Of a stretch of DNA of 64,000 bases, positions 41,837 through 57,430 are shown piece by piece. The DNA is from Coraliomargarita sp. Lineage in GTDB: Bacteria > Verrucomicrobiota > Verrucomicrobiia > Opitutales > Coraliomargaritaceae. Location of the stretch: the NCBI GenBank assembly GCA_965216325.1, contig OZ244160.1, positions 1,888,001 to 1,952,000 of the forward strand. Reading direction: 5' to 3'. Made by a program: the position numbers and the translations under genes. The notes beneath the pieces are model-generated. The model was not told the origin of the DNA, made no database searches, and saw only the letters and a list, made by a program, of their open reading frames with translations. Each line of letters opens with the position of its first letter. The stretch's first letter is position 1.

Positions 41837-42151
41837 ATGATCGATCTCGTTAAGAAAACAATGTTGGCTGGCGTGGGTCTGGCCGTCGTGACGAAAGACA
41901 AAGTCGTTGAGTCACTCGATGAACTGGTGGAAAAGGGCAAGTTGACCAAGGAAGAGGCTGCCGCGATGTCTGAAAAGATTGTCGAAGAGGGCAAAGCGGA
42001 AACCGAGAAGGCGAAGGCCGAGGCAGGCAAGCTCTTTAGCGAAATGCTGAACCGTGCAAATGTGGTGACCAAGGATCAATATGATGCCTTAGCAGCCCGT
42101 GTGACCGAGCTCGAGGGGAAGCTGCATAAGGAGTTCCCAAACAGCGACTGA
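41837..42151 (+). CDS. Phasin/PhaF-like granule-associated helical protein
   Basis: KKTMLAGVGLA...DELVEKGKLTKEEA...L.ARV.ELE pattern; upstream of an ABC1 kinase. Confidence 0.75.
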   Translation: MIDLVKKTMLAGVGLAVVTKDKVVESLDELVEKGKLTKEEAAAMSEKIVEEGKAETEKAKAEAGKLFSEMLNRANVVTKDQYDALAARVTELEGKLHKEFPNSD

Positions 42152-42164
42152 AGTCGCTGTTTGG

Positions 42165-42200
42165 AGTGTGAAGGTGGGAATGTGCAAAGGTATGAAGGTT
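42165..42200 (+). repeat. Left arm: tandem 8-mers (GTGNGAAR)
   Basis: GTGTGAAG GTGGGAAT GTGCAAAG GTATGAAG. Confidence 0.7.
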
Positions 42201-42206
42201 GTTTGA

Positions 42207-42557
42207 ATGACTGACTTTGCGGAACGCTTTGAAGACCTTCGGATATGGCAGCAGGCTCGCCAGTTAGCGAATGCTGTTTACGAAACACTTGGTGACTTGC
42301 GCGATTATGGGTTTCGCGACCAGATCCTGCGTGCGTCGGTTTCTACGATGAACAATATTGCTGAAGGGTTCGAGCGTCGCACATCGCGAGACTTCGGTCA
42401 CTTTCTGGATATTGCTAAGGGCTCATGCGGCGAGGTCCGTAGCATGCTTTATTTGGCTGAAGATCTAAACTACATGAAGCCAGAAGTAGCCGCTCAGCTC
42501 AGGGGAAATCTCGTGACGCTTTCTTCAGGAATCGCAGCCTTTCGTCGGAAACTTTAA
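42207..42557 (+). CDS. Four-helix bundle protein (23S rRNA IVP-like family)
   Basis: FEDLRIWQ, DQILRASVSTMNNIAEGFER and FLDIAKGSCGEVRSMLY motifs. Confidence 0.92.
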   Translation: MTDFAERFEDLRIWQQARQLANAVYETLGDLRDYGFRDQILRASVSTMNNIAEGFERRTSRDFGHFLDIAKGSCGEVRSMLYLAEDLNYMKPEVAAQLRGNLVTLSSGIAAFRRKL

Positions 42558-42600
42558 TACTTTGCTACTTTCACACCTTTAACCTTCCCACTTTCCCACC
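42558..42600 (-). repeat. Right arm: the same 8-mers in inverted orientation
   Basis: Reverse complement reads GTGGGAAA GTGGGAAG GTTAAAG GTGTGAAA GTAGCAAA. Confidence 0.7.
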
Positions 42601-42615
42601 AAGGCAACGCCTTCC

Positions 42616-44265
42616 ATGAAGCCCTTTAATTATCTTTCCAATGCGGTGCGTGCGCCGGAGATCGTCGCTATTCTGGTGCGTTGGGGCTTTGAGGATTTAT
42701 TGTTGCAGTTGGATACACCGCAGTTCTTGCTGAAGAATTTGGTGCGTCGACGAGTGACGGACCTGACGCCTTATGAGCGGGTGCGCAATGCGGTCGAAGA
42801 GCTGGGGCCGATCTTTGTAAAGTTTGGTCAGATTCTTAGCACCCGCCCCGACCGTCTTCCGGAGCCTTTGGTGATGGAGCTCAAGAAGTTGCGCAGTCAG
42901 GTGGAGCCACAGGAGTATGCGGTGATTGAGCCTGTGCTCTTGAGGGAGCTTGGTGGGCCGATTGAGGATGTCTTCGAGTCATTCGGGAAGACCCCGTTTG
43001 CGGCGGGTTCGCTCGGGCAGGTTTATAAGGCGACGCTGCGGTCCTCGGGGGATGTTGTCGCGGTAAAAGTGCAGCGTGCCGAGATACATAAGACGGTCTC
43101 TGCTGATATGGAGATCATCGGTTGGTTTGCGCGGCAGTTGCATACCCGAGTGGAGGAACTGCGCCCGTATAACCTGCCTGCCTTGGTGAGTGAGGCAGAG
43201 AAGCGTTTACAGGAGGAGTTGGACTTTCGCAATGAGGCCGATAATGCCGAAATCTTTCGTGCGCTGAACCCTGACCAAGCGCGTGTATTTGCGCCCAAGG
43301 TTCATGCTGCCTACACGACGCGACGTCTGTTGGTGACTGAATGGATCGATGGGCGCTCTCCGGAGGATGCCGAGATTACCACTGAAGAAGGGCAGGAGCT
43401 GGCACTTTTGGGCGGTAAGTCGGTGTTTGATCAGATCGTCGGCTCGGGCTTTTTCCATTCCGATCCGCACACGGGCAATATGCTGATTACGCCCGACAAG
43501 CGCATTTGCTTATTGGACTGGGGACAGGCGGGACAGATTACTCAGGAGATGCGTTACCTGCTGGTGGACTTCTTTGCGGCGATTACTTCGCGTAGTCCTG
43601 AGAAAGTGATCCGTGTTGCCGAGCGAATGAGCGTGAGCAATCGTCGTATCGACCGACGCCGACTGGAGAAAGAAGTCGCATACTTACTGAACAAGTATCG
43701 TGAGTATGGGCCCGCAGGAACCAAGATGGGGACCGTTGGCTTGGAGATGTTGTTTGTGTTTGGGACGAATGGGATTTCGGTGCCGCCGGACTATGCCTTG
43801 CTTTCGAAGGCGGTGCTTTGTGTCGAAGAGGCTGCGCGCACCCTGGATCCACAATTTGATATTCAGAGCATGGCGCGACCCTATCTGGAGACCCTGAGTA
43901 AAGAGCGCTGGAGCCCGTCGAATGTGGCGCGTCAATCCTTGTATCCGGTGCTGTCCGTGCTCCACAATTTGCAACAAATTCCCGAGCAGTTGCAGCGCAT
44001 CTTGGAGCGTGTCGAGGATGAGGATATCCGGCTCAATATGCATCACGCCGGCACGGAGAACTTGGAGGAAACCTTCAACGCGTCGATGAATCGACTCACT
44101 GTTGGGATCATCATCGGCTCGCTGGTGATCGGCTCGTCTTTGATTATTACAACCGGTGTGACGCCTTTGTTATGGGGCTACCCGGCGATTGGTATTCTTG
44201 GTTTCCTGGTCTCCGGGATGCTCGGCATGTATATCGTGATCTCGACCTTGCGGAAGCACCGTTGA
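42616..44265 (+). CDS. AarF/ABC1/UbiB family atypical kinase
   Basis: LGPIFVKFGQILSTRPD, AAGSLGQV, VAVKVQR, HSDPHTGN and LLDWG motifs; two C-terminal TM segments. Confidence 0.9.
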   Translation: MKPFNYLSNAVRAPEIVAILVRWGFEDLLLQLDTPQFLLKNLVRRRVTDLTPYERVRNAVEELGPIFVKFGQILSTRPDRLPEPLVMELKKLRSQVEPQEYAVIEPVLLRELGGPIEDVFESFGKTPFAAGSLGQVYKATLRSSGDVVAVKVQRAEIHKTVSADMEIIGWFARQLHTRVEELRPYNLPALVSEAEKRLQEELDFRNEADNAEIFRALNPDQARVFAPKVHAAYTTRRLLVTEWIDGRSPEDAEITTEEGQELALLGGKSVFDQIVGSGFFHSDPHTGNMLITPDKRICLLDWGQAGQITQEMRYLLVDFFAAITSRSPEKVIRVAERMSVSNRRIDRRRLEKEVAYLLNKYREYGPAGTKMGTVGLEMLFVFGTNGISVPPDYALLSKAVLCVEEAARTLDPQFDIQSMARPYLETLSKERWSPSNVARQSLYPVLSVLHNLQQIPEQLQRILERVEDEDIRLNMHHAGTENLEETFNASMNRLTVGIIIGSLVIGSSLIITTGVTPLLWGYPAIGILGFLVSGMLGMYIVISTLRKHR

Positions 44266-44317
44266 AGTTGTCGGTTGAGCGTTGTTTGTTGTTGGATGCG
44301 GCGTGTTCCACGAGCAA

Positions 44318-45511
44318 CTAGCAACGCTTCACGAACAACCCTAGACTCGCGGCGTAGCCGTGTAGCCGTGTTCTCCCGTCGACTTGGCCGAACTCGCCGT
44401 TACAAAAAACGCCTGCTATCGGGAGTTGCGGGAGTGCTGTCTGAATAATTTCAACATCGTGATTCGGAACGCCATAGAGCGAGGTGCCACGACCGATGCA
44501 ATCGCACAGGCAGGCGCCGAGTATCTCGCATTTGCCGATACGCTTACGCAGTTTCTGTAGCTGTTTAGCGAAGTCGGCTTCAGCGATTTGCGGATCACGA
44601 ATTTGAAATTGCAGATTCTGGCCGACGCGTAGTGGGGTTGCGATCGCCACAGCGCCGGTTTTGGGATCGATTGCGGCAAGATTACGAACCAGGAAGTCTC
44701 CCGTCCGAAATTTTGCTTTGTATTCATCCATGACAAGGCCAATGAAGACGTTACCATGGGCTTGCTGTTGCTCCCGTTGCGTCATTCCTTCAAGCGTGTC
44801 TCGCAGCACTTCTAGGATGGGGCGATTGCCGATCTCGTGTATGATGTTACGGTCGGCTTGGGTGATGACCCAAGGGTGCCCGATTGGGCGGCAGCCGTTG
44901 GAAATGATCGGCTCAAGTTCGACTTCACCTTCAAAGCCAAGCGCGACCGCACCATCCTTTGTGCTTTGGCCATTGTAGAACAGTGTGGTTTCGGGGGAGT
45001 CGACAGCCGCGCTCGCGAAACCGCCGAGGGTCACGCGCCCGCCGGTCGCGATATCCCAGTCCTTGAGCCAGTCTTCATGACCAATGCTCTCTGGAGAGGC
45101 GAATAGCAGCCATGAGTTCGCTGCATCACTCGTAGGACCAAGCGCCTTACGGATAGAGTCGCTACCATGATCCGCTTGAAAGCAACTGGAGGGAAGATGC
45201 CGTGCGTGAACCGTCGTTTCGGGCAGATGATAGAGCGCGACGCTCAGCCCGGAGTCATTTTCAATTTCGTTCTGGTTGGCGATTAGGGCACTACCCGTGC
45301 AGCCGATCACGTTGGCGACTTGTCCGTCGATACGGACAATTTCCATGAGCGCTTGCATGGCGTCGACACATTCGACTGAGCAAAAGACCAACGCGAATGT
45401 CGCTGGGCCGCAGAGGCATTGCCTTTGCTCACGAGCCCATTGCTGGACCTCGTTTTCGTTGATTGGAGTAGAGAAGTGAGTGACGACGCAGTGCTTGCTA
45501 GGTTCTGGCAT
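44318..45511 (-). CDS. FIST domain sensory protein
   Basis: VIGCTG, GGFAS, SNGCRPIG, DFLVRNL, CIGRG and GVFCNGEFG motifs. Confidence 0.88.
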   Translation of the reverse strand: MPEPSKHCVVTHFSTPINENEVQQWAREQRQCLCGPATFALVFCSVECVDAMQALMEIVRIDGQVANVIGCTGSALIANQNEIENDSGLSVALYHLPETTVHARHLPSSCFQADHGSDSIRKALGPTSDAANSWLLFASPESIGHEDWLKDWDIATGGRVTLGGFASAAVDSPETTLFYNGQSTKDGAVALGFEGEVELEPIISNGCRPIGHPWVITQADRNIIHEIGNRPILEVLRDTLEGMTQREQQQAHGNVFIGLVMDEYKAKFRTGDFLVRNLAAIDPKTGAVAIATPLRVGQNLQFQIRDPQIAEADFAKQLQKLRKRIGKCEILGACLCDCIGRGTSLYGVPNHDVEIIQTALPQLPIAGVFCNGEFGQVDGRTRLHGYAASLGLFVKRC

Positions 45512-45587
45512 GTAGAAAAGGAAGTCGGATAAGTAGTTGATCCATTAATACACATCATCAGACTAAAAGTGAACGCTAAATTGAGAT

Positions 45588-46742
45588 ATGGATTCGGATT
45601 TAGGAGACAGCGCATTTGCACAAGACGGCTTGGATGCGCCACAGTGCTTAAAGGCTGCATTTATGCTCCTTGAGGAGGGGCATTGGGTTTGGGACTTTGA
45701 GCAGCACCTGTATCTGGACGCCAAATGTTGCCGTATGCTCGGCTTGGATGAGGGCTATCGGACTTGGAGTCTCGCGGACTTCCTCGTCTGTTTACATGAG
45801 CAGCATCATGAGTGGTTATTGGATGCATTCGATGCAGTGTTGGCTGACAACAAAGAACTGCATACCGAGCTGAACTTGGAAAATGGCCAGGGGAAGCTGG
45901 AGTTGCGTGGCGCACTGTGTGAACTTTCCGGGCGGCGTAAGGTGATTGCCGGGACGATGGTGCCGATCACAGCGGTTCCACAGCAGGAGCACGACCGACA
46001 GCAGGAACTCGAGGCGTCGCTTGAGCAGCTGCGCGAGTCCAATTCCGAGTTACAGAGTTTTGCGTCGGTGGCATCGCATGATTTACGTGAGCCCTTGCGA
46101 ATGATTAGTAGCTATTTGCGTCTGTTGCAGGAACGGTCACTTGAAGCACTCGATGCGCGTGCGCAGCGTTATATCAATTACGCCTGTGAGGGTGCTGATC
46201 GCATGCGGACAACGATTGAGGACCTGCTTTCATACGCGCGCCTCGGTAATCAGCAAGCGGAGCTGGAGCCATTCAGCCTCGACCAGATTTTTGAGGAGGT
46301 GGTCGAGAATCTGGGGGCCAGCATTCGCAGTCTAGATGCAAACGTGACGGTTGATATCGACCATTCGCCGGTGATCTTGGGAGAGCGGCCTCGCTTAGTG
46401 CGGCTCTTTCAGAATCTAGTCGCGAATGCGATGAAGTTCCACAAAGACGACTCTGAGCGCCGCGTCGCGATTCGTTTTGAATCGGGAGTGCGGCATAATC
46501 TGGCGAACTATTGGGTCGTTCAGATCGAGGACAATGGGATCGGCATCGACCCGGATCATGTCGACTTGCTGTTCAATGTCTTTCAGCGCCTGAACACACG
46601 CGACGAATTCGATGGCTCTGGCATTGGCTTGGCAGTGTGTAAAAAGATTGCAGAGCAGCACGATGGTCGGATTTGGCTGATTTCAGAGCCTGGGGTCGGC
46701 AGCATTTTCTATGTTGCTTTGAAAAAAGCAGACGATCTGTAA
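45588..46742 (+). CDS. PAS-domain sensor histidine kinase
   Basis: ASHDLREPLR H-box, NLVANAMKF, DNGIG and GSGIGL. Confidence 0.9.
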   Translation: MDSDLGDSAFAQDGLDAPQCLKAAFMLLEEGHWVWDFEQHLYLDAKCCRMLGLDEGYRTWSLADFLVCLHEQHHEWLLDAFDAVLADNKELHTELNLENGQGKLELRGALCELSGRRKVIAGTMVPITAVPQQEHDRQQELEASLEQLRESNSELQSFASVASHDLREPLRMISSYLRLLQERSLEALDARAQRYINYACEGADRMRTTIEDLLSYARLGNQQAELEPFSLDQIFEEVVENLGASIRSLDANVTVDIDHSPVILGERPRLVRLFQNLVANAMKFHKDDSERRVAIRFESGVRHNLANYWVVQIEDNGIGIDPDHVDLLFNVFQRLNTRDEFDGSGIGLAVCKKIAEQHDGRIWLISEPGVGSIFYVALKKADDL

Positions 46743-46885
46743 AGCGTAGGATACAAAGCTGAGCCTTCGGCAGTTCATGGATTCTCCGCCGAGAGGCGTC
46801 GATTTGACAACCGATGCGATGGCTCCTTGCTTTTCTAGATTGATTTGTGCGGCTGAATTGCGCTTTGTAAGTGTTTAACCCTGCC

Positions 46886-49165
46886 ATGCCTGACACGCCA
46901 AAAGAGTATCTAGATATCTTGTTGTTTGAGGACAATGCTGCCGATGCGGACCTCGTGGGCGAGTATCTTGAGCTGTCGAAATTGAACTGTGATTTAGTGC
47001 AGGTTAAACGACTGGCTGAGGGCCTGCAGCTACTGAAGAAAACTTCGTTTGATGTGGTCCTGTTGGATTTGTCTTTGCCGGATAGCCGTGGGATTGAGAC
47101 CTTGGAAAAGGTCGCCGAACTCATCGATGATGAGGTGATCATCGTGCTCACGGGTGCGGATGATGAACAGTTGTCGCTGGATACACTTAAGCGGGGTGCT
47201 CAGGACTATCTTTTTAAGGATAAGTTGAGTGGTGAAGTTTTAGGTCGGTCGATTCGTTATTCTTTGGAACGAACTGCAATGATTAACCGTATTGAGGCGC
47301 ATAATCGGGAGACGAAACACCGTGAAGCGTTGTTGCAGCGGGTCTTTGATGCGAATATTGATGCGATGCTCATCCTTACCGATGCCTGCGAGATCAAGTT
47401 TTTGAATCCTGCTGCGGGCAATTTGCTGGATGCGGATCCTGCGACCTTAGTGGGGGAAATTTTCCCGTTTAGTGTCGAGTCCGGGCAGCAAGCTGAGTTG
47501 GAAATCCCGGGACCAGAGGACACAAACCGTTTAGTGGAGCTGCATGCAGTGGATCTTGTCTGGAAAGGGGAGAGTTCAATGCTGGTAGTGCTGCGAGACA
47601 TTACCGAATACCGGGCTGCGCAGCAGGCACTGAAGTTAGAAAAAGTTCACCTAGATGTTATCTTCGACTCTATCGCAGACGCGGTGATCGTTAGTAACAG
47701 CAGCGGCTTAGTCGAACGTATCAACCCGGAGGCGGAGCGCATTATAGGGATGCGCAACGGTGAGGCATCTGGTAAGCCGCTCAATGAGGTTCTGCAGTTG
47801 AAGCATCCCGAAGGCGGCAAGCTGATTGAAGATCCATCCAAAGTGTTTTTGAGCGTCAAGTCCACTCGACCTGCGGATGAGTGGGACTGTCCGTTGCTCA
47901 GCCACGATGGGCGTGAAATCTTGGTCAATGTGCAGATGCGCCGAATTGAGGAGGCTGCGCCCCAGGGGCATGTCATTGTTTTCCGCGATATCACACAGCA
48001 TAAAGAACGGGAAGAAGGGCTTTATCGTGCTGAGAAGATGCAGTCGATCAGCCAGTTGGCTGGAGGAATTGCGCACGATTTTAATAACATGTTAACCGCG
48101 GTGTTGGGTAACATCTCTGTTGCCCGAATGGGGCTAGGAGAAGGCCATGCGGAAGCCGAGAAGCTTTTATCTGCCGAGAAAGCGGCCTTGCAGGCACGCA
48201 GTTTGACCCAGCAATTACTGACCTTTTCCAAGGGGGGTGAGCCAATCACGGAGGCGACTACGATTGATCGATTGGTTGAAGATTGTGCGCAGTTTCTCCT
48301 GCGTGGCTCTAAGGTGAAGTGTGAGCTTCACAAGGATGATCCCTTGCATGCAGTTGAGGTGGATCGAGGGCAAATCGCTCAAGTCGTGAACAACCTCATT
48401 ATCAACGCCAATCAGGCGATGCCGGAGGGGGGCGTATTGACTGTTTCTTTAAGAAATGTGCGGGTGGCAGCCAACGAACTTCCACCGCTGCATGCCGGAC
48501 GCTATGTTTGTATTTCAGTAAAAGATCAGGGCGTCGGGATCGATCCGCAGCATATTAGTCGTATATTTGATCCATACTTCACAACGAAGGAAGAGGGCAA
48601 CGGCTTAGGCTTGGCATCTTGTTTTAGTATTGTTCGCAATCATCAGGGGCTGATCACTGTCGACTCAACTCTGGGTGAGGGAGCCGAGTTCCGCGTTTAT
48701 CTTCCTGAGGCAGAAGCCGTCGCCGATTCGGAGCTAGTTGAGCCGGCTGAAGAGAAGGCCGAGGAATCTCGAGACCAGATACATCACGGCAGCGGCCGTA
48801 TTCTAGTCATGGATGATATGGAAGCGATGATGATGGTTGCCGGCGAGATTTTGGGTATGCTTGGTTATGACGTGACGCTTACCTCGGACGGAGAAGAAGC
48901 AATCGAAGTCTATAAGGAGGCCAAAGAGTCCGGGAATCCGTTTTTGGCCTGTGTGTTTGACCTGACGGTTCCAGGAGGAATGGGCGGCGAGGAGGCCTGT
49001 CAGATTCTCCGTGAGTATGATCCCAGCATGATCGTGATCGCATCGAGTGGTTACACGACATCAAACGCGATGTCGGACTTTAAGTCTGCTGGTTTCAATG
49101 CGGTGGTTCCCAAGCCGTATCGTATCAAGGAAATGAGCGCAGCGCTGCACGAGCTCTTGAGCTAA
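46886..49165 (+). CDS. Hybrid kinase REC-PAS-PAS-HisKA-HATPase-REC
   Basis: LLDLSLPD receiver, AHDFNNML, PYFTTK, GLGL and C-terminal receiver DLTVPGG...KPY. Confidence 0.9.
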   Translation: MPDTPKEYLDILLFEDNAADADLVGEYLELSKLNCDLVQVKRLAEGLQLLKKTSFDVVLLDLSLPDSRGIETLEKVAELIDDEVIIVLTGADDEQLSLDTLKRGAQDYLFKDKLSGEVLGRSIRYSLERTAMINRIEAHNRETKHREALLQRVFDANIDAMLILTDACEIKFLNPAAGNLLDADPATLVGEIFPFSVESGQQAELEIPGPEDTNRLVELHAVDLVWKGESSMLVVLRDITEYRAAQQALKLEKVHLDVIFDSIADAVIVSNSSGLVERINPEAERIIGMRNGEASGKPLNEVLQLKHPEGGKLIEDPSKVFLSVKSTRPADEWDCPLLSHDGREILVNVQMRRIEEAAPQGHVIVFRDITQHKEREEGLYRAEKMQSISQLAGGIAHDFNNMLTAVLGNISVARMGLGEGHAEAEKLLSAEKAALQARSLTQQLLTFSKGGEPITEATTIDRLVEDCAQFLLRGSKVKCELHKDDPLHAVEVDRGQIAQVVNNLIINANQAMPEGGVLTVSLRNVRVAANELPPLHAGRYVCISVKDQGVGIDPQHISRIFDPYFTTKEEGNGLGLASCFSIVRNHQGLITVDSTLGEGAEFRVYLPEAEAVADSELVEPAEEKAEESRDQIHHGSGRILVMDDMEAMMMVAGEILGMLGYDVTLTSDGEEAIEVYKEAKESGNPFLACVFDLTVPGGMGGEEACQILREYDPSMIVIASSGYTTSNAMSDFKSAGFNAVVPKPYRIKEMSAALHELLS

Positions 49166-49176
49166 CGGGGTGGGCT

Positions 49177-50145
49177 CTATTTCAACCAGTGCTTCCAGTC
49201 CTTCTGGTAGTCGTCGACGTTGCGCCAATCGATTATTTTTGCAGGAGCTGTTATTGTCGAGGCTTCGGGGTCGGACTCCTTGTATAGTTTGTTGACCATT
49301 AATTCGACTCCGGTTTTGCCCCAATCGTAATGAGGATGCACGACGAAGGCGTCGATGTATTCCTGTTTTAAATACAGTATTACCGATGGTGAGGTTTGCA
49401 CTGCTACACAGGGCAGTTCGCCAGGCTTCCAGGGGAGTGCTGATGTCCCACGTAAGGCCCAGTCATTGAGTAGAATCCAGCCTTTGATGAGGCGACTGCG
49501 GTCGGCTTCTTCGGTCTGGCGGATTGCTTCGTTGGCTGCCGCATAGTTGGGTTGGCTGCGCACGATCGTTTCAATACGCTTATAACCGAGCACTTCACGC
49601 ACGCCGGCGAGACGCTCCAGCTCTGCGGGAGAGGGGGGGGCGCTGATTAGAATGGCCACACGCCCACGTGTGGGGAGTTTGGGCAGAATGGCTTGGGCCG
49701 CCAGTTTCCCGACTTCGGCCTCATCGGCCACCATGCTGGCAAGTACGGGGAGTTCCTCGATGCTTTGCTCAAACAGAACCACTTCTTGGCCTTGTTCTAA
49801 GGCAAAGCTGATGGAGGAGCTGACATCATCGACATGTTTTGGGCTGATTAGAAAGCCGTCGGCTTCTTCGGTAAGCAGTTGCCCCAATGCGGTGAGTTGG
49901 TCTTCGCCCTCGGCTTGCTTGGGAGTGAGCACGACGACTTCGACATCGATGGAGTATTGCTCACTTAGAGCCTTGGCCGCATCTTCGGCGCCGGAGTGAG
50001 CGGCTTGATAGGTCGGGTCTTCCAGATCGTGGCCGACGATGCCGATTTTAAATTCTGCAAGCACCTCGCGGTTTTGTGCCACGAGTAGATTTCCAATGCA
50101 CAGCGCGATGAGCCCGAGTCTGAGGTGTTGCGAGAGTTTGATCAT
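49177..50145 (-). CDS. Periplasmic sugar-binding (RbsB-like) protein
   Basis: Signal peptide, ADGFLISP, E.GKLAA and Y.WG..GV type I binding-protein pattern; start chosen at ATG 50145. Confidence 0.7.
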   Translation of the reverse strand: MIKLSQHLRLGLIALCIGNLLVAQNREVLAEFKIGIVGHDLEDPTYQAAHSGAEDAAKALSEQYSIDVEVVVLTPKQAEGEDQLTALGQLLTEEADGFLISPKHVDDVSSSISFALEQGQEVVLFEQSIEELPVLASMVADEAEVGKLAAQAILPKLPTRGRVAILISAPPSPAELERLAGVREVLGYKRIETIVRSQPNYAAANEAIRQTEEADRSRLIKGWILLNDWALRGTSALPWKPGELPCVAVQTSPSVILYLKQEYIDAFVVHPHYDWGKTGVELMVNKLYKESDPEASTITAPAKIIDWRNVDDYQKDWKHWLK

Positions 50146-50206
50146 GAACTTGAGAATGTAGCCTGTTTCTCTGACCACTGGCAACAGCGCTTTGTTCAAT
50201 TGAAAA

Positions 50207-50293
50207 GGTTGGGGTCCCGGCTTTAGCCGGTTCTGTAGCACAGGCATCTTGCCTGTGTAAATTCAGGTCATGGTAGAACAGGCGGGACCCCAA
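50207..50293. repeat. REP-like cluster (inverted pair with a nested GTAG-type palindrome)
   Basis: GGTTGGGGTCCCGGCTTTAGCCGG, then GTAGCACAGGCATCTTGCCTGTG, then a partial inverted copy GGCGGGACCCCAA. Confidence 0.65.
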
Positions 50294-50297
50294 TGAA

Positions 50298-51377
50298 TTA
50301 CCAAGCCGTTTGCCAGCCAAGCGTGACGACGTAGTCGGTCTCAAGCTGGTAGCCGTTTAGATCCTGCCAGAGTGGCAGGCGGACATCGAGCGCTAGGCGG
50401 TGGCCTTTAACCATGCCAGAGTTCCCGAGTAGGTTGACGCCAAGGATCGCATCCACGCGCTCGCCGCCATAGTTGTCGCCGAATGCGGTGGTGACCGATT
50501 GGCGGCCACCCGGAGCCATGGTGCCGATGCCATCTTGCTCGCCATCCAGTTCATCGGACCACTCGTAGCTCAGGCCACCGTTGATCGCGATCCAGTCGGT
50601 GAGGTTATACGCAGCCCAGCCAACGACTTCGAAGGCATCGCCGAGTTGGTAGCCATTGTCGTTCTCACTTTCGAGGCGGATGGTCGCATTGGCTTGTGCA
50701 CCATAGGACCAGTCGTCGAAGAGCTCGACCCAGGTGATCGATGGAAGCAGGTCGAAGGTGCCGGAGCCGAGTTGCATCGGGGCAGGGAGCTGCTGGCGTT
50801 GGCGACCACTCATGGCGGGTGTTTCGTCTTGTTTATCGATGGAACCGGTTGGCACGCTGATGCCGAGTCCGACGTGTGCACGCTGGCGTTCCTTTTGATA
50901 GAACTGATACAGCCCAGTGAACTTCAGGTCGCCCCAGCCGCTGCTCTCGGTAGTGAAGCCGTCTTCGCCGTTGTTGATCATTGCTGCGACTGCTGGATTC
51001 ACAGCGTGGTCCATTTCAATGTCGAGATAGTTGGCCATGACCATGAAGGTGAAGCGATCGGTCGGTGCGAACATCAGACCGAACATATGCATGTCCATAG
51101 TCATCTCTTCGGGTGCGACGGCGTAGTTCGCATCGAAGATATCTTGAGTGGATTCGCTGCTGGTACCGTTGGCCATGCCATCCATCTCCATACGCATGAA
51201 GCGGTAGGAGAGCATCCAACCACCTTCATGGTGTGTGTGATCCCCCATGATGGAGATCGGCGCGTATGCATCCGGGCGTGGTCGGTCAGTGCCGGATGGG
51301 CAGCAGGATAAGACCGGTTCGGCCTGTGTTGCGGAGAGTCCCGCAATGAGTAGTGTTGTGGTGTAAAGTGATTTCAT
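50298..51377 (-). CDS. Outer-membrane beta-barrel transporter with His/Met-rich N-terminus (putative metal uptake)
   Basis: Signal peptide, CC, PDAYAPISIMGDHTHH, MTMDMHMFG, PTGS, MQLGSGT and C-terminal W. Confidence 0.7.
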   Translation of the reverse strand: MKSLYTTTLLIAGLSATQAEPVLSCCPSGTDRPRPDAYAPISIMGDHTHHEGGWMLSYRFMRMEMDGMANGTSSESTQDIFDANYAVAPEEMTMDMHMFGLMFAPTDRFTFMVMANYLDIEMDHAVNPAVAAMINNGEDGFTTESSGWGDLKFTGLYQFYQKERQRAHVGLGISVPTGSIDKQDETPAMSGRQRQQLPAPMQLGSGTFDLLPSITWVELFDDWSYGAQANATIRLESENDNGYQLGDAFEVVGWAAYNLTDWIAINGGLSYEWSDELDGEQDGIGTMAPGGRQSVTTAFGDNYGGERVDAILGVNLLGNSGMVKGHRLALDVRLPLWQDLNGYQLETDYVVTLGWQTAW

Positions 51378-51387
51378 TGTTGAAAAG

Positions 51388-51562
51388 GAGTTAGGAGACA
51401 GAAGCCAGGAGGTAGAATCGTATCTGACGCGACTTCTGATTTACTGATGCTCAAGCACCAAATTTTTAGGCATGACCTGACATGCCATGGCGAATGCGAA
51501 GCGAAACCTAGGGCCTGAAACAGATACTTCTGACTTCTGGCTACTGTATTCTGACTTCTGAA
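51388..51562. repeat. Inverted arms of tandem heptamers enclosing about 110 bp
   Basis: AGTTAGG AGACAGA AGCCAGG AGGTAGA ... CTTCTGA CTTCTGG CTACTGT ATTCTGA CTTCTGA. Confidence 0.6.
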
Positions 51563-51568
51563 AACGAC

Positions 51569-51973
51569 CTACACCAAGCGCGGTGGTGGCGTTGGCACGC
51601 CTGTCGCGACACTTTCGAATGAGTGGACCACTAACGGGTGCTTTGCCTGCGCCGTATACGGGTGGGGAACCTGAACCGGTTGTTCCAGCCCGAGCATGAG
51701 CTTCAAATCCTTGTCGGATGCTGAGGCATTCGCCGGCTGTTGCTCGCGTTCGGTCTCTTCCACTTCGATGATGAGCTTACACATCCCGCAAGGACGTTCA
51801 CCACTAAAGGTTTCCTCAACTGCTTGGCTGAATGAGTTTTCTTGCGAGTAGCTCGCTAGCATCCAGCCCCATGCGCCAATCTGTAGAACGGCCAGAGGGC
51901 CAGTCAGTAAGACCGCACAAAGGGGGAGTAGCAGTAGTTTCGTTAGCAGGCGATGTTGCATCGAGGAGGGCAC
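51569..51973 (-). CDS. Small membrane protein with CxxC and C-terminal PTPPPR (DUF2946-like)
   Basis: N-terminal TM, TFSGERPCGMCK and tail GVPTPPPRLV; the start may be ATG 51961. Confidence 0.65.
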   Translation of the reverse strand: MPSSMQHRLLTKLLLLPLCAVLLTGPLAVLQIGAWGWMLASYSQENSFSQAVEETFSGERPCGMCKLIIEVEETEREQQPANASASDKDLKLMLGLEQPVQVPHPYTAQAKHPLVVHSFESVATGVPTPPPRLV

Positions 51974-52003
51974 AGTGCAGGTGCAGATCTCCTTGCTGTC
52001 GAA

Positions 52004-52495
52004 TTAAATCGAGTGTTGGAGCTCCGTGAATTCGCTGTGGCGGAGTATGCGCTGGTTGGCGGAGCCGCGGAATTTCAGGCTTGGGTCGGCCTTGGCTTGG
52101 ATGAAGCGGCCATCAATCAACACATCCACATAGTCGAGGACTGCGCGCTGTGCGTCCGTGAGATTTTCAAAGGTGTAGCCCGTCCAGAGCCAGATGTCTT
52201 TGTCAGGGCACTCGCGTTTCACGCGCTGAACCAAGTTTAAGACCTCACTGCAGTTTGGATGGAAAAGTGGATCGCCACCACTCAGTGACAATCCGCGTCT
52301 CGGTATATTTGTGTCCTTTAGGTTGGCTATGATGTGGTCGGCTAAGGTATCGGTAAACAGGTGACCGGAGTCTGCACGCCAGGTGCTGGTGTTATAGCAA
52401 CCGGGGCAGTGATGCTCACAACCGGAAACGAAGAGCGTGCAACGGGTTCCAGGGCCATTGATGACGTCGATGTCGATGTAGCGATGATATCTCAT
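52004..52495 (-). CDS. nrdG: Anaerobic ribonucleotide reductase activase
   Basis: NGPGTR, CEHHCPGC radical SAM motif, LSGGDP and FRGSANQR. Confidence 0.95.
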   Translation of the reverse strand: MRYHRYIDIDVINGPGTRCTLFVSGCEHHCPGCYNTSTWRADSGHLFTDTLADHIIANLKDTNIPRRGLSLSGGDPLFHPNCSEVLNLVQRVKRECPDKDIWLWTGYTFENLTDAQRAVLDYVDVLIDGRFIQAKADPSLKFRGSANQRILRHSEFTELQHSI

Positions 52496-52497
52496 AC

Positions 52498-52568
52498 TCA
52501 GATGACAGAAGTCAGAAAACAGAGGTCAAAGAAGACTGGCTTCTGACCTCCGGTCTCTGGCCTCTGAA
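52498..52568. repeat. Gene-less inverted heptamer-repeat hairpin filling the nrdD-nrdG gap
   Basis: TCAGATG ACAGAAG TCAGAAA ACAGAGG TCA ... CTTCTGA CCTCCGG TCTCTGG CCTCTGA. Confidence 0.7.
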
Positions 52569-52569
52569 C

Positions 52570-54744
52570 TCACAGGTGTTTCACACGGCGTTTCACTTCT
52601 TCCTGTTTGCCGGCGTTGAAGGGGCGGGCATCAGGGTTGCCGAGGTAACCGCAGACGCGGCGCGTGACCGAGACTCGGGTGGGCTCGTTGTTCCCGCAGC
52701 TCGGGCAGGTGAAGCCGCTGGAGCTGCATTCGAATTCGCCCGTGTAGCTGCAGTCGTAGCATTCGTCGATCGGGGTGTTGGTGCCGTAGTAGGGCACGCG
52801 CTCGTAGCTGTAGTCCCAGACATTTTCCAAGCCTTCAAGGTTGTGCTGCATGTTGGGATATTCGCCGTAGCAAATGAATCCGCCGCTCGCGACCGCAGGG
52901 TAGGCCATTTCGAAGTCGAGTTTGGCGTACGGGTTCACCTTCTTTTCGACATCCAAGTGGAAGCTGTTGGTATAATATCCCTTATTGGTGACATTTTCTA
53001 TTTGACCAAACTTCTTGAGGTCCAATCCGCAGAAGCGGTCGCATAGGTTCTCGCTTGGTGTGCTATAGAGGCTAAAGCCGTAGCCGGTTTCGGTCTTCCA
53101 GGCGTCGACGGCTTCACGTAACACTTCAATGATATGGAGTGCCTTCTTCTGTAGCTCGAAGTCGTCGTAGACGTGGCCTTTGCCGTAGAGCGCGTTGATC
53201 GTCTCGTGCAGGCCAATGTAGCCGAGGCTAATAGACGCGCGGCCGCTTTTGAAAATGTCTGAAATTGAGTCGTCTGCATTGAGGCGAACGCCGCAGGCGC
53301 CTTGCATGTAGAGAATTGGGGCCACGCGTGCTTTGACATTCTCCAAGCGGGCGATGCGCGTGTCGAGCGCACGGCGTGCGAGTGTGAGGCGCTCACGCAG
53401 GATCTTGAAAAAGCGCTTCTCGTCCCCATTGGCCTCGAGCGCGATGCGTGGCAAGTTGAGGCTGACGACGCCGAGGTTGTTGCGGCCTTCGTGCTGCTCT
53501 TTGCCATCACATTCGTAGGCGCCGAGGAAGCTGCGGCAGCCCATCGGGAACTTGAACGAGCCGGTGATCTTGATGGTTTGCTCGTAGTTCAGAATGTCGG
53601 GATACATCCGCTGGCTCGCGCACTTGAGTGCGAGTTGCTTGATGTCGTAGTTCGGGTCCTCCGCTTTGCGGTTGAGACCCTCACGGATCGCGAACACGAG
53701 CTTGGGAAAGACGGGGGTCTTGCGGCGCTTGCCGAGGCCGCGGATGCGGTTGTTGAGGATGGCGGTTTGGATGAGCTTGGCCTGCCAGCCCTCGCCGAGA
53801 CCAAAGCCAAAGGTCACGAACGGCGTCTGTCCATTGGCGGTGTGGAGTGTATTGACTTCGTACTCGAGCGATTGGAAGGCGTCGTTGCACTCCTTCTCCG
53901 TGAGGGCCATCGCGTAGGCTTCCGGATCTTTGACGCCCCATTCATTCCCCGTGGCGAGGTGCTTGTCGTAGCTCGCAGTAACGTAAGGGGAGAGTACTTC
54001 ATCGATGCGATTGATCGTGGTGCCGCCATAGATGTGGCTGGCGACCTGCGCAATGATTTGTGCGGTGACTGCAGTCGCGGTGGAAATGGATTTGGGCGGC
54101 TCGATCTCGGCGTTGCCCATCTTGAAGCCCTGCGTGAGCATGCCTTCGAGGTCAATGAGCATGCAGTTGAACATCGGGAAGAAGGGGGCGTAATCCAGGT
54201 CGTGGTAATGGATGTCGCCGGATTCGTGGGCATCGACGATGTCCTTGGGTAACATGTATTGCTTGGCGTAGTGCTTGGCGATGATGCCAGCCAGCAAGTC
54301 TCGCTGGGTTGGGATGACACGCGCGTCCTTGTTGGCGTTCTCGTGCAGCAGTTCGGCGTTACTTTGGCCTACGAGGCCTTCGATCTCACGACTGAGCTTG
54401 CTGACGCGTTCGCGGGCGACGTCGCGGTCACGGCGATATTCAATGTAGGCGCGGGCAAGTTCCTTGTAAGGGCCCTCCATCAGCTCGTTCTCGACGAGTT
54501 TCTGGATTTCGGTCACGCAGATGTCTGCCGAGCCGACAAGTTTCGCGGTGACGGCTGCAGTTACTTGGCCGGCGTAGGCAAAGTCGTCGATGTTGGCAGT
54601 GCGCCCAGCCTTGTAGACTGCCTGGGCAATTCGCTCCGCCGAAAAGGGGGTGGAACTCCCATCCCGTTTTTTAACAACGGGATAGGGGAAGGATTGGGGA
54701 GTTTCGAAAAGAGTAGACTGTATGGCACTAGATGTCGGAAGCAT
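52570..54744 (-). CDS. nrdD: Class III anaerobic ribonucleoside-triphosphate reductase with ATP cone
   Basis: VKKRDGS ATP cone, ENANKD, FNC, MGCRSFL, YTNSFH, CxxC...CxxC and RVCGYLG glycyl-radical motif; start chosen at ATG 54744. Confidence 0.97.
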   Translation of the reverse strand: MLPTSSAIQSTLFETPQSFPYPVVKKRDGSSTPFSAERIAQAVYKAGRTANIDDFAYAGQVTAAVTAKLVGSADICVTEIQKLVENELMEGPYKELARAYIEYRRDRDVARERVSKLSREIEGLVGQSNAELLHENANKDARVIPTQRDLLAGIIAKHYAKQYMLPKDIVDAHESGDIHYHDLDYAPFFPMFNCMLIDLEGMLTQGFKMGNAEIEPPKSISTATAVTAQIIAQVASHIYGGTTINRIDEVLSPYVTASYDKHLATGNEWGVKDPEAYAMALTEKECNDAFQSLEYEVNTLHTANGQTPFVTFGFGLGEGWQAKLIQTAILNNRIRGLGKRRKTPVFPKLVFAIREGLNRKAEDPNYDIKQLALKCASQRMYPDILNYEQTIKITGSFKFPMGCRSFLGAYECDGKEQHEGRNNLGVVSLNLPRIALEANGDEKRFFKILRERLTLARRALDTRIARLENVKARVAPILYMQGACGVRLNADDSISDIFKSGRASISLGYIGLHETINALYGKGHVYDDFELQKKALHIIEVLREAVDAWKTETGYGFSLYSTPSENLCDRFCGLDLKKFGQIENVTNKGYYTNSFHLDVEKKVNPYAKLDFEMAYPAVASGGFICYGEYPNMQHNLEGLENVWDYSYERVPYYGTNTPIDECYDCSYTGEFECSSSGFTCPSCGNNEPTRVSVTRRVCGYLGNPDARPFNAGKQEEVKRRVKHL

Positions 54745-54770
54745 GTGCCTACTAATCACTACATCTAGTG
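54726..54770. promoter_or_regulatory. Tandem NrdR boxes
   Basis: CACTAGATGTCGG (54726) and CACTACATCTAGTG (54757) start 31 bp apart at the nrdD start. Confidence 0.75.
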
Positions 54771-54939
54771 GATTCGCTAGCAGAATTTAGAGCCGACGCG
54801 GATGTATTAGGCGTCGAAAAGTTGCCAATGGCGGGGCCTAATAAGCTGAGTCATGTAGGGCTTCTGCTTGCAGAATGCCGCTCGTGTGAATTGGCGTCGT
54901 GCAAGCACGAGCCCGGGGCCGTAGTCAGTGATCAGAAAT

Positions 54940-54962
54940 CCGCCTAAAGGCGGGACCCCAAC

Positions 54963-54963
<1 letters not shown>
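54940..54963 (-). repeat. REP-like palindrome directly after the purM stop
   Basis: Minus strand GGTTGGGGTCCCGCCTTTAGGCGG matches the 50207 copy at 22 of 24 positions. Confidence 0.7.
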
Positions 54964-56171
<1,208 letters not shown>

Positions 56172-56184
56172 GATGCGAAAGGTG

Positions 56185-56216
56185 AACCGTTAATTTACGT
56201 TAATTGACGTTAATTT
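56185..56216. repeat. Left 32-bp inverted repeat of the GxxExxY cassette
   Basis: AACCGTTAATTTACGTTAATTGACGTTAATTT; 30/32 match to the reverse complement of 56656..56687. Confidence 0.9.
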
Positions 56217-56264
56217 TTTTGCGATAAATGCGTGAGGCTGAAAATGCGTGTTTTAGAATTTGGC

Positions 56265-56648
56265 TTATGATGGAGCTAGTGTGACTTTGCGCCACTGTAA
56301 ACTTGGGTGTTTGAAATTGATGATGAGTCCAGTGGTTTTTCCAGTGATGCGTAAATATGTGAGCATCTGGCCTAGCTCGTAGTCACCGATGGCTTCGATG
56401 GTTTTGGTGTCTACTATGAGCGCTTCCTCGACTTCAAGGTCTGGGATGTATTCGTCTACCTTAATGTCTCGATAGAGGACAGGATAGTTGGCTTGTTGAG
56501 TAAATGAAATGCCGAGGTGTTTCAGTTCCACGCATAGCGCACGCTCGTAGGTCTTCTCCCTTAAGCCGTAACCAAGGGTGGAGTGCACGGTCATAGCCGC
56601 ACCAACAACGCGATAGATCAAATCATCGATGTCCTCAGGCTCCGTCAT
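56265..56648 (-). CDS. GxxExxY protein (PD-(D/E)xK-like fold)
   Basis: VHSTLGYGLREKTY, IPDLEVE...IVDTK, QMLTYL and GLIINF motifs. Confidence 0.92.
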   Translation of the reverse strand: MTEPEDIDDLIYRVVGAAMTVHSTLGYGLREKTYERALCVELKHLGISFTQQANYPVLYRDIKVDEYIPDLEVEEALIVDTKTIEAIGDYELGQMLTYLRITGKTTGLIINFKHPSLQWRKVTLAPS

Positions 56649-56655
56649 GCGAGAG

Positions 56656-56687
56656 AAATTAACGTTAATTGACGTAAATTAACGGTT
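56656..56687. repeat. Right 32-bp inverted repeat of the GxxExxY cassette
   Basis: AAATTAACGTTAATTGACGTAAATTAACGGTT, touching the plsC stop codon. Confidence 0.9.
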
Positions 56688-57328
56688 TAAATCACCACTT
56701 CCTGCGGTGGTTGGAGTGCGGCGATGCGTTCCATGATTCGGCGGGAGGCTTCGAGGTAGCGCTCGGGGTGGTCTTTGCCCGGGTCGATCTCTTCTGTGGT
56801 CATGGGTTCGCCGTAAACGATTTGAATGTGGCCGCCGAGCTCGGGGAGTTTGCGGTGGCGTCCATAGGCTTCGTAGGTGCCGAAGAGTCGAGTCGGAATC
56901 ACGGTTGCGCGGGACTTGCAGGCAATCATGCCCGCGCCCGGCTTGGGTGATTGTAGGGCGCCGTCCGCTGAACGCGTGCCTTCCGGATAGATCGCGATCG
57001 AGCCCTTATTCTTGAGGGACTTGAAAATGGCTTTGAGGGAAGAGACGTCTGCGTTTTCGCGGGAGACCGGAATGGTGCCGATGGCTTCGAGGCCCTTGCC
57101 GAATTGCCCTTTAAAGAGCGTGTCGCGGGCGAAATAGTTGATCTGGCGCATGACTTGGCAGCCGATTGCGGGCGGATCGAAGAAACTGACGTGGTTGGCC
57201 GCAAAGATCACGCTGCCCTTCAGCGGAACTGCATCGATGTTGGTCGTGCTGTAGTCGTATAAGGTGTTGAAGAACCAGTCGGCGGTGACGCGGACGGCCT
57301 CATACAGTGGTGGAATTTGCGGACGCAT
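56687..57328 (-). CDS. plsC: 1-acyl-sn-glycerol-3-phosphate acyltransferase
   Basis: NHVSFFD and YPEGTRS motifs. Confidence 0.88.
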   Translation of the reverse strand: MRPQIPPLYEAVRVTADWFFNTLYDYSTTNIDAVPLKGSVIFAANHVSFFDPPAIGCQVMRQINYFARDTLFKGQFGKGLEAIGTIPVSRENADVSSLKAIFKSLKNKGSIAIYPEGTRSADGALQSPKPGAGMIACKSRATVIPTRLFGTYEAYGRHRKLPELGGHIQIVYGEPMTTEEIDPGKDHPERYLEASRRIMERIAALQPPQEVVI

Positions 57329-57331
57329 AGT

Positions 57332-57365
57332 TCAGAAATCAGAGATCAGAAGCCAGAGGTCAGAC
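57332..57365. repeat. Single heptamer-repeat arm just upstream of plsC
   Basis: TCAGAAA TCAGAGA TCAGAAG CCAGAGG TCAGA. Confidence 0.65.
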
Positions 57366-57376
57366 GATTACTAGGT

Positions 57377-57430
57377 GGTGGGAAACGCTCTATCGTTTCC
57401 GTTGGTGGCAATGACGGAGCATTGCCCGCC
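57377..57430. repeat. Inverted REP-like doublet
   Basis: GGTGGGAAACGCTCTATCGTTTCC and the inverted partner GGCGGGCAATGCTCCGTCATTGCC, 6 bp apart. Confidence 0.6.

Follow-up and report, generated by a model that had tools for sequence, protein, structure and literature searches.

How do short tandem repeats come to stand as inverted pairs in the spacers of operons, sometimes around a small gene and sometimes around none? The question is raised by a 64,000-nucleotide (nt) stretch of the genome of a Coraliomargarita species (GenBank assembly GCA_965216325.1, contig OZ244160.1, positions 1,888,001 to 1,952,000; hereafter the window), which is part of a single 3.06-Mb contig. Five sites in the window carry arrays of short repeated words. 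At two of them inverted arrays, or arms, bracket a gene, encoding in one case a four-helix-bundle (4HB) protein of the 23S rRNA intervening sequence (IVS) type and in the other a protein of the GxxExxY family; such a gene with its arms is here called a cassette. The remaining three sites are gene-less. An earlier note, made from the letters of the window alone, described these as a single architecture built from different repeat units, whether or not a cargo gene is enclosed, and this description is supported by the results below. The account proposed here falls just on the probable side: the cassettes would be of the IVS type, gene and inverted word arrays forming one heritable unit, and the gene-less hairpins and the single array would be non-autonomous relatives or leftovers of such units.

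Word arrays around two gene families

The association of arms with genes was judged by a flank-to-flank inverted-repeat score, with a main cut at 14 or more and a looser one at 12 or more; the gene calls come from a crude caller, and thresholds and family labels are our own. The genome contains five 4HB and two GxxExxY matches. When their flanks are read, six of these seven genes are found between inverted word arrays, each with a word of its own, and the seventh is a truncated 4HB gene. The five that are present among the called genes score 15–27 (the two window cassettes 15 and 27), and only 28 of 2604 called genes reach 14 or more. The other genes at or above this cut, 20 of 23 of which are annotated, include one DDE transposase, four Y1 transposases, a DUF559 gene, several small open reading frames (ORFs) between GC-rich repeats, and housekeeping genes such as argS and argJ, each with a complete hairpin on either side; the flanks were read for most of these genes, and gatC is bracketed likewise. 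The DUF559 gene (a Vsr-like endonuclease of 125 aa, contig 2125566–2125943) lies between GC-rich inverted repeats with a score of 24.5, without word arrays.

The same association is seen outside this genome. In a survey of the taxonomic family, which covered 41 genomes, 16 of the 30 4HB loci fetched score at least 14 and 21 score at least 12, several of the low scorers being truncated genes. Among the GxxExxY loci, 20 of 29 scored reach at least 14, with one more locus left out because its flank was too short; the arms of this type consist of 9–10-nt words, and 12 of the 20 have an AACCG start and a CGGTT end. A scan of species-representative genomes yielded 80 close relatives of the window 4HB protein, at 40–76% identity, from Verrucomicrobiota, Bacteroidota, Patescibacteria, Planctomycetota, Bdellovibrionota and others. 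For the 79 of these with both flanks, the score is at least 14 in 54 and at least 12 in 64, and only two have the flanking genes of the window. Heptamer arms are present at another 4HB gene of this genome and in relatives. The tie between arms and the two gene families, which the earlier note had put forward for examination, is thus strong in the genome, in the taxonomic family and in other phyla.

The features of the five sites, in window coordinates, are the following:

42152–42206, + strand: 5' arm of the 4HB cassette, a purine-rich array of words of ~8 nt that directly follows the stop of the phasin-like gene upstream
42207–42557, + strand: 4HB cargo gene, 23S rRNA-IVS protein of 116 aa, matching TIGR02436 (100 bits), PF05635 (3.3e-31) and PDB 2gsc (1.2e-12)
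42558–42615, + strand: 3' arm of the 4HB cassette, a pyrimidine-rich array that runs up to the AUG (42616) of the downstream UbiB-like gene
51386–51559, − strand: gene-less element with two 32-nt heptamer arms (CAGAAGN / NCTTCTG type) and a 110-nt interior, between a stop codon at 51569–51571 and a start at 51377
52499–52568, − strand: gene-less heptamer hairpin, occupying the spacer from the nrdD stop to the nrdG start
56185–56216, − strand: arm of the GxxExxY cassette, 3' in the mRNA sense, with 10-nt words and an outer AACCG terminus, 14 nt from the start of a purM-like gene
56265–56648, − strand: GxxExxY cargo gene, PD-(D/E)XK-like protein of 127 aa (TIGR04256, 124 bits; PF13366, 2e-33)
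56656–56687, − strand: arm of the GxxExxY cassette, 5' in the mRNA sense, touching the stop codon of a plsC-like gene
57332–57365, − strand: single heptamer array, of NCTCTGA type in the mRNA sense, 3 nt upstream of the start of the plsC-like gene

All five sites, whose positions in the earlier note proved correct on direct reading, exceed chance in controls and lie between co-oriented genes, 0–14 nt from the neighbouring stop and start codons. The arms proper of the 4HB cassette (42166–42200 and 42559–42600) are made of words of ~8 nt such as GTGTGAAG and GTGGGAAT, with a complementarity of 73–84%. Those of the GxxExxY cassette are 32 nt each and 94% complementary, and Tandem Repeats Finder (TRF), which by itself misses degenerate arms, assigns them a period of 10, not 9. 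In the gene-less element at 51386–51559 the arms (51386–51417 and 51528–51559) are 75% complementary, and the interior has no ORF. For the single array there were no inverted repeats in 57300–57420, and the best partner within 900 nt on either side scores 7.5. An Rfam search of the region gave no fitting family, the sole match being a Thr leader at an E-value of 0.68. In a search for defence or phage roles, neither cargo protein had a match in PADLOC or PHROGs, and a PDB sequence search gave none for the GxxExxY protein. The genome also has a separate class of GC-rich palindromes of the repetitive extragenic palindromic (REP) type, some of them GTAGGG-headed; one palindrome of this class (GGCAATG...CATTGCC type, window 57366–57430) adjoins the single heptamer array.

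Word arrays are spread over the whole genome. CTG at period 7 in four successive registers gives 24 arrays, against 0–5 at periods 5, 6, 8, 9 and 10, and a scan for periodic segments at periods of 5–12 nt gives 114 in the real sequence against none in a block shuffle (293 against 23 at a looser cut). When each array is joined to its best reverse complement within 900 nt, 61 inverted pairs are obtained, ~58 of them distinct, which fall into ~7 word families:

6-mer, CTTAATC then GATTAAG: 28 pairs
7-mer, GAACGTC: 10 pairs
10-mer, starting (G)AACCGTTAAT: 13 pairs
CAGAAG, CTGAAAC, TTAGAAG and an 8-mer: smaller word families

The order of the two arms is constant inside every word family, and each of the major families includes one cargo-bearing copy, with the arm order of the gene-less copies. 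The 6-mer family comprises 112 arrays, of which 66 consist of five units, a sharp mode; within a unit some positions are constant and others variable (C-N-T-A-M-T), the loops are unrelated and the order of units varies between copies. Arm length is ~30 nt, roughly constant irrespective of a unit size of 6–10 nt. For 30 elements the genes on either side are co-oriented and both at most 300 nt away; here the stop codon is a median 11.5 nt before the element and the start codon a median 15.5 nt after it, and the element takes up 79% of the spacer. In total, 46 of 64 elements lie between co-oriented genes compared with 62% of spacers of at least 30 nt, and this preference is therefore mild. The truncated 4HB gene (a 76-aa frame at contig 1550400–1551200) is preceded by fragments of heptamer CTCTG and 10-mer ACGT arm types, and has the appearance of a cassette that is decayed or nested.

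Turnover at orthologous spacers

Cassettes and gene-less elements are gained, lost and replaced at orthologous spacers. The junction of the phasin-like and UbiB genes is syntenic and was compared at 19 loci, where the spacer contains:

cassette of the window type with the same 8-mer word: 4 of 19 loci, in four genera including this genome, with one gene broken
cassette of another 4HB type (33% identical) with GTTGTTG-type arms: 1 of 19
truncated remnants of the GTTGTTG-armed 4HB type: 2 of 19
empty hairpin of a third word (CACGAAAG): 2 of 19, in same-genus relatives whose UbiB is 93–94% identical
single array of a fourth word (GTTCAAT type): 1 of 19
16–105 nt without a word array: 9 of 19, two of these with GC-rich hairpins

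Three same-genus relatives (G001, G002 and G003) allow the other sites to be followed. The nrdD–nrdG junction holds the hairpin in the window, a related one in G003 and only 8 nt in G002, and in G001 the stop and start codons overlap. In the spacer that matches 51386–51559, G001 and G002 have a GC-rich REP-type palindrome instead, and the spacer that matches the single array at 57332–57365 measures, from alignment coordinates, ~15 nt in G001 and ~30 nt in G002. When this genome was compared with 400 kb of G002 (~80% nucleotide identity), 3 of 92 collinear gaps held word elements of this genome; in two of them G002 carries one array of another word and in the third a vestige, and one further 10-mer element is kept in both genomes. 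Filled and empty alleles, which the earlier note had suggested looking for, thus exist at the phasin-like–UbiB and nrdD–nrdG spacers and in the collinear gaps, and the cassettes are not fixed in relatives. A contig from the RNA library of a related strain also joins the phasin-like and UbiB genes (window 41858–43337), with 466 other letters in place of 475 of the window; it is another version of the insert and not a demonstration of transcription.

The descent of the cassettes is visible in comparisons of 4HB proteins. Most pairs of closely related 4HB proteins in the taxonomic family have both the word and homologous flanking genes in common (in one example, an 84% identical pair with GAACGTC arms from two genera), and several cassettes persist at one site across genera; vertical inheritance over long times, with patchy loss, is therefore indicated. 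The window 4HB protein is 61–76% identical to its orthologues, beside 67–75% for UbiB, and has thus been kept under selection.

The relation between word and protein was examined in 108 cassettes, of which 88 have arms scoring at least 12; after exclusion of 84 shared-flank pairs, 3744 pairs that do not share a site remained. Similarity of the words rises with protein identity with a Spearman rho of 0.41, a value reached by none of 500 permutations, and the 5-mer overlap of the 5' arms is 0.019 where protein identity is below 30% and rises to 0.121 where it is at least 60%, although these statistics are inflated by relatedness, relatives not being independent. A control segment from the flanks was available for 87 cassettes; for these, rho was 0.40 with the arms and 0.06 with the control segments, and pairs matched for the GC content of their arms gave 0.47. 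In cassettes of the window clade, the 5' arm contains AAAGT in 44 of 66 and AAGGT in 30 of 66, compared with 1 of 17 and 0 of 17 in other clades. The 5' arm, with a median length of 32 nt over the 88 cassettes, is purine-rich (>0.6) in 64 and pyrimidine-rich in 7. These comparisons indicate joint inheritance of arms and gene, even where the sites are not homologous.

The gene-less arrays follow a different course. The 6-mer pattern occurs in 12 of the 41 genomes, with 18–213 matches, and the cognate 4HB gene is intact in six of these, fragmentary in two and missing from four. At least 16 matches to the GAACNTC word are present in 16 of the 41 genomes, where the cognate gene is intact in six, broken in three and missing from seven. 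In a control, the reversed pattern gave 0–1 matches per strand, against up to 213 with the real pattern. The idea that gene-less arrays need an intact cognate gene was consequently rejected, since 6 of the 12 genomes with 6-mer arrays and 10 of the 16 with GAACNTC arrays have no intact copy; the arrays therefore outlast the gene. It is a trivial result that array-free genomes lack the gene, since a cassette comes with arrays of its own. In one surveyed genome (G005, contig C9), dense two-strand clusters of GAACNTC type are found at 53400–54550 and 64940–65125, beside a 4HB gene of the cognate clade (53522–53899).

RNA stems, recognition sites and other explanations

The closest described design is that of ORF-bearing 23S rRNA IVSs, and the likeness drawn by the earlier note holds in some detail. 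According to Warrier et al. (2016, PMC4990558), the helix-45 IVS of Coxiella burnetii has a 28-bp terminal stem, inside which RNase III cleaves, and tandem GACAGAT heptamers, variable in number among strains, before the S23p ORF; a pentamer is mentioned there for the Coxiella S23p protein. The window cassette shares with it the cargo family (PF05635), the ORF in the loop, the terminal inverted repeat that closes the element (28 bp in Coxiella, ~30 nt here) and short tandem repeats in the arm that precedes the ORF (heptamers in Coxiella, ~8-nt words here). It differs in its site, a spacer between phasin-like and UbiB-like genes rather than a 23S rRNA helix, and in the excision by RNase III, which is known for Coxiella and only presumed by analogy for the window cassettes. 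A search of this genome outside two masked stretches (contig 1352001–1368000 and 2792001–2800000, together 24,000 nt) gave no 23S rRNA match. A second cargo family (GxxExxY) and many gene-less copies are found here, and whereas the Coxiella ORF is decaying, the window 4HB gene is kept at 61–76% identity in four other Opitutales-type genomes.

Short tandem repeats without such a gene have been described in several bacteria. Rehm et al. (2015, PMC4692102) describe heptamer repeat pairs of Xanthomonas (GGGAATC), with 70–75 convergent pairs per genome, and of Nostoc. They are tandem 7-nt units with a preferred array length, gained and lost between species, and lie preferentially in spacers between aligned ORFs at most 50 bp from a stop or start codon; here, too, tandem units of 7–9 nt, three to five per array, occur in convergent pairs. 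They were read as G-quadruplex repeats, whereas the window words (CAGAAG, ACGTTAATT) have no G3 runs. The heptamer and 10-mer words of the window lack GGG runs and the 8-mer arm has scattered GGG only, and the four G3 tracts that would give G-quadruplex capacity are not found in the window words. For the genome of Geobacter metallireducens, Aklujkar et al. (2009, PMC2700814) list arrays of four octamers, three nonamers or five heptamers, mostly in opposite-strand pairs at variable distance, and the class 3 consensus, MTYCTGA, is nearly the heptamer of the window; the differences are the interpretation as DNA sites of an unknown regulator and, in that text, the absence of a cargo gene. A Beggiatoaceae paper reports TAACTGA direct repeats before start codons. 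A term search of the available texts of these Xanthomonas, Geobacter and Beggiatoaceae papers gave no mention of four-helix-bundle genes or intervening sequences. A title and abstract search of the literature on GxxExxY, PF05635, TIGR02436 and IVS protein gave no paper about such cassettes, and none was found that links the architecture to operons. In print, the word-armed design is known only from rRNA intervening sequences.

The two cargo proteins offer further comparisons. The GxxExxY protein belongs to a family with a nuclease-type fold (PF13366) and is at most a putative nuclease. The 4HB protein recalls Avd, the accessory four-helix-bundle protein of diversity-generating retroelements (DGRs), which we take to be a pentamer-forming homologue of the PF05635 family. 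Unlike in DGRs, there is no reverse transcriptase and no template/variable repeat pair near the window gene, and the variable word positions are not adenine-specific. PF05635 is cited in the DGR literature.

In the IVS-type account, two inverted arrays of 6–10-nt units, each arm ~30 nt long, would close a loop that holds at most one small gene, for a four-helix-bundle IVS protein or a GxxExxY PD-(D/E)XK-like protein, and the unit would occupy the gap that separates a stop codon from the following start codon. Once transcribed with the operon, the arms may pair into a ~30-bp stem, so that the insert would be pinched out and the stop and next start placed side by side. The stem may be cut by RNase III, as in the Coxiella rRNA IVS (an RNase III gene is present in the genome), and the arms might also serve as recognition arrays for the cargo protein.

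The stem can surely form. When 42149–42618 is folded, the minimum free energy and centroid structures both pair the 4HB arms and close the whole insert, beginning at the UGA of the upstream gene and ending 2 nt short of the next AUG, and the arm–arm duplex of this cassette has an energy of −53 kcal/mol. The fold of the GxxExxY cassette has a z-score of −5.3, that of the gene-less element at 51386–51559 an energy of −50.4 kcal/mol (z −2.3) and that of the hairpin at 52499–52568 an energy of −33.5 kcal/mol (z −3.95), with none of 200 shuffles as good; for the single array at 57332–57365 z is −0.2. At all 32 of its 32 positions the 5' arm of the GxxExxY cassette matches its counterpart in G002, beside ~85% identity in the flanking DNA. 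The G003 copy differs from that of the window at 7 positions, 5 of which are changed on both arms, and the arms of cargo cassettes can therefore change in step, whether by compensation, conversion or replacement.

Several results weigh against the IVS-type account. Folded as a whole, the 470-nt 4HB cassette is no better than its shuffles (z −1.2). Among sense-strand mismatches G·U is not in excess, either in 46 hairpins between co-oriented genes (36 G·U against 52 A·C) or in 88 cargo cassettes oriented by their gene (96 against 112, p 0.30), and the sense duplex is the more stable one in 18 of the 46 hairpins and the less stable one in 27, with one tie. Gene-less arms show no preference for their own partner, which ranks first in 1 of 23, 0 of 10 and 2 of 13 cases; in the 6-mer family the mean pairing score is 21.0 within copies and 21.4 across them, with a median own-partner rank of 12 out of 23. 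Duplex energies of the four orthologous 4HB cassettes, −43 to −63 within a locus, are no better than between loci and carry no information on covariation. With three sequence tests for selection on a sense RNA helix negative, RNA-level excision, including the looping out or release of the cargo imagined in the earlier note, is plausible only by analogy with the Coxiella IVS. Contigs of three unlabelled sequencing runs contain the whole stretch, and those of one RNA-labelled run 5% of its sequence words; short joints (sides of 20–29 nt) in the three unlabelled runs were considered as excision junctions and rejected, as they derive from other arm copies.

Mobility is a further difficulty for the same account. 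No transposase family was found among 45 of the 46 crudely called genes of the window (a 4570-aa ORF being left out), in agreement with the earlier note, and none is associated with the elements. Four filled/empty comparisons showed no target-site duplication, arrays persist where no cognate gene is intact, and mobility is slow at best, since most closely related cassette pairs of the family have flanking genes in common and so descend vertically. The view of the gene-less pairs as empty sites or scars stands in part. They have the word families and arm order of the cassettes, and truncated scars are present in two relatives; none of 26 loops of this genome contains a gene remnant, and truly empty sites are short spacers of 0–30 nt.

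The clade-specific word, the constant and variable positions of the units, the lack of covariation and the symmetric mismatches suggest that the arms may be recognition arrays instead of, or as well as, RNA stems. One version of this idea, which is held only tentatively, is that they are clade-specific recognition words for the encoded pentameric 4HB protein or, at the AACCG termini, for the GxxExxY nuclease-like protein. If that is true, the protein would act in trans on gene-less arrays of the same word in the operon spacers of the genome, and the reading would unite rRNA intervening sequences, bacterial heptamer repeats and the Avd-like protein family. An explanation to which we give a lower probability takes the arrays as paired putative protein-binding sites on DNA, for the cargo protein or a host regulator, with the RNA stem as a by-product and the gene autoregulated or self-marking. 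Within a protein clade the same word is kept across phyla, though pairing alone would permit any word; units such as C-N-T-A-M-T combine constant and variable positions, gene-less hairpins lack arm-to-arm covariation, mismatches are strand-symmetric and arms measure ~30 nt whatever the unit size. The Geobacter metallireducens paper also took similar paired arrays, including the five MTYCTGA heptamers, as global-regulator sites. The survival of arrays in genomes without an intact cognate gene is harder to accommodate, as are the stem of true rRNA IVSs, an RNase III substrate in the Coxiella source, and the both-arm changes of the GxxExxY cassette in G003, which fit a pairing constraint or inter-arm conversion.

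Three other explanations appear increasingly remote. It is rather unlikely that the elements are host-serving RNA structures which evolved in place, as mRNA stabilisers, processing sites or aids to translational coupling, and in which small genes lodge secondarily. They do precisely fill the spacer from stop to start, 46 of 64 lie between co-oriented genes (against 62% of spacers), and most Xanthomonas heptamer repeats are transcribed according to Rehm et al. (PMC4692102); however, same-genus relatives have an empty spacer, a different word or a REP-type palindrome at the same place, the sense strand has no G·U excess, the enrichment between co-oriented genes is mild, and word and gene travel jointly to unrelated sites and phyla. 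Poorer still are the prospects of elements like REPs and REP doublets forming hairpins (REPINs), or like miniature inverted-repeat transposable elements, mobilised in trans by a transposase elsewhere, such as a Y1 transposase of the REP-associated tyrosine transposase (RAYT) kind. Like REPs, the word hairpins are short, multi-copy, intergenic and of inverted-repeat build, with turnover between species, and the genome has both REPs and four Y1_Tnp genes; the 6-mer family alone has its 112 arrays here and 100–213 pattern matches in same-genus relatives, and the outer AACCG...CGGTT termini recur in 12 of the 20 high-scoring GxxExxY-type loci. Unlike REPs, they have periodic arms, and the link to RAYTs was rejected: the word hairpins flank 4HB and GxxExxY genes, whereas the Y1_Tnp genes are flanked by other, GC-rich REP-type palindromes (two of GTAGGG type). 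No target-site duplication was seen in the filled/empty comparisons, and the order of units differs between copies, which are therefore not simple copies of one master. As for chance low-complexity or slippage-prone simple repeats of no shared origin, short tandem units can expand by slippage, and in the Coxiella source the number of IVS heptamers varies among strains. This last explanation has next to no probability and is already contradicted by the controls, namely the shuffles, the other periods and the reversed pattern, as well as by the constant arm order within families and the association with two gene families.

Significance and further observations

To our knowledge, neither PF05635 (IVS protein, Avd-like) nor PF13366 (GxxExxY), both of them very large families, has a known function outside DGRs. 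Tandem repeats of 6–10 nt in bacteria have been taken for quadruplexes, regulator sites or RNA elements, and we know of no common account of them; nor do we know of a settled origin for rRNA intervening sequences. The window and its relatives offer one frame for both protein families, for the short tandem repeats and for the origin of the rRNA IVSs, and a single genus provides natural filled, empty, remnant and replaced alleles. The elements split genes that normally overlap or are coupled (nrdD and nrdG) and therefore bear on the tolerance of operons for insertions. The insert between these two genes (window 52493–52572, and its counterpart in G003), a hairpin of 70–80 nt exactly at the junction, is a natural test case for translational coupling.

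Two further features were noted. The Y1 transposase genes, which are IS200-like and have a RAYT-like layout, lie at contig 3007746–3008360, 1680034–1680609, 2644054–2645064 and 289853–290770. Within the window, the ORF of 4570 aa (27952–41664, + strand) stops 130 nt upstream of the phasin-like gene.

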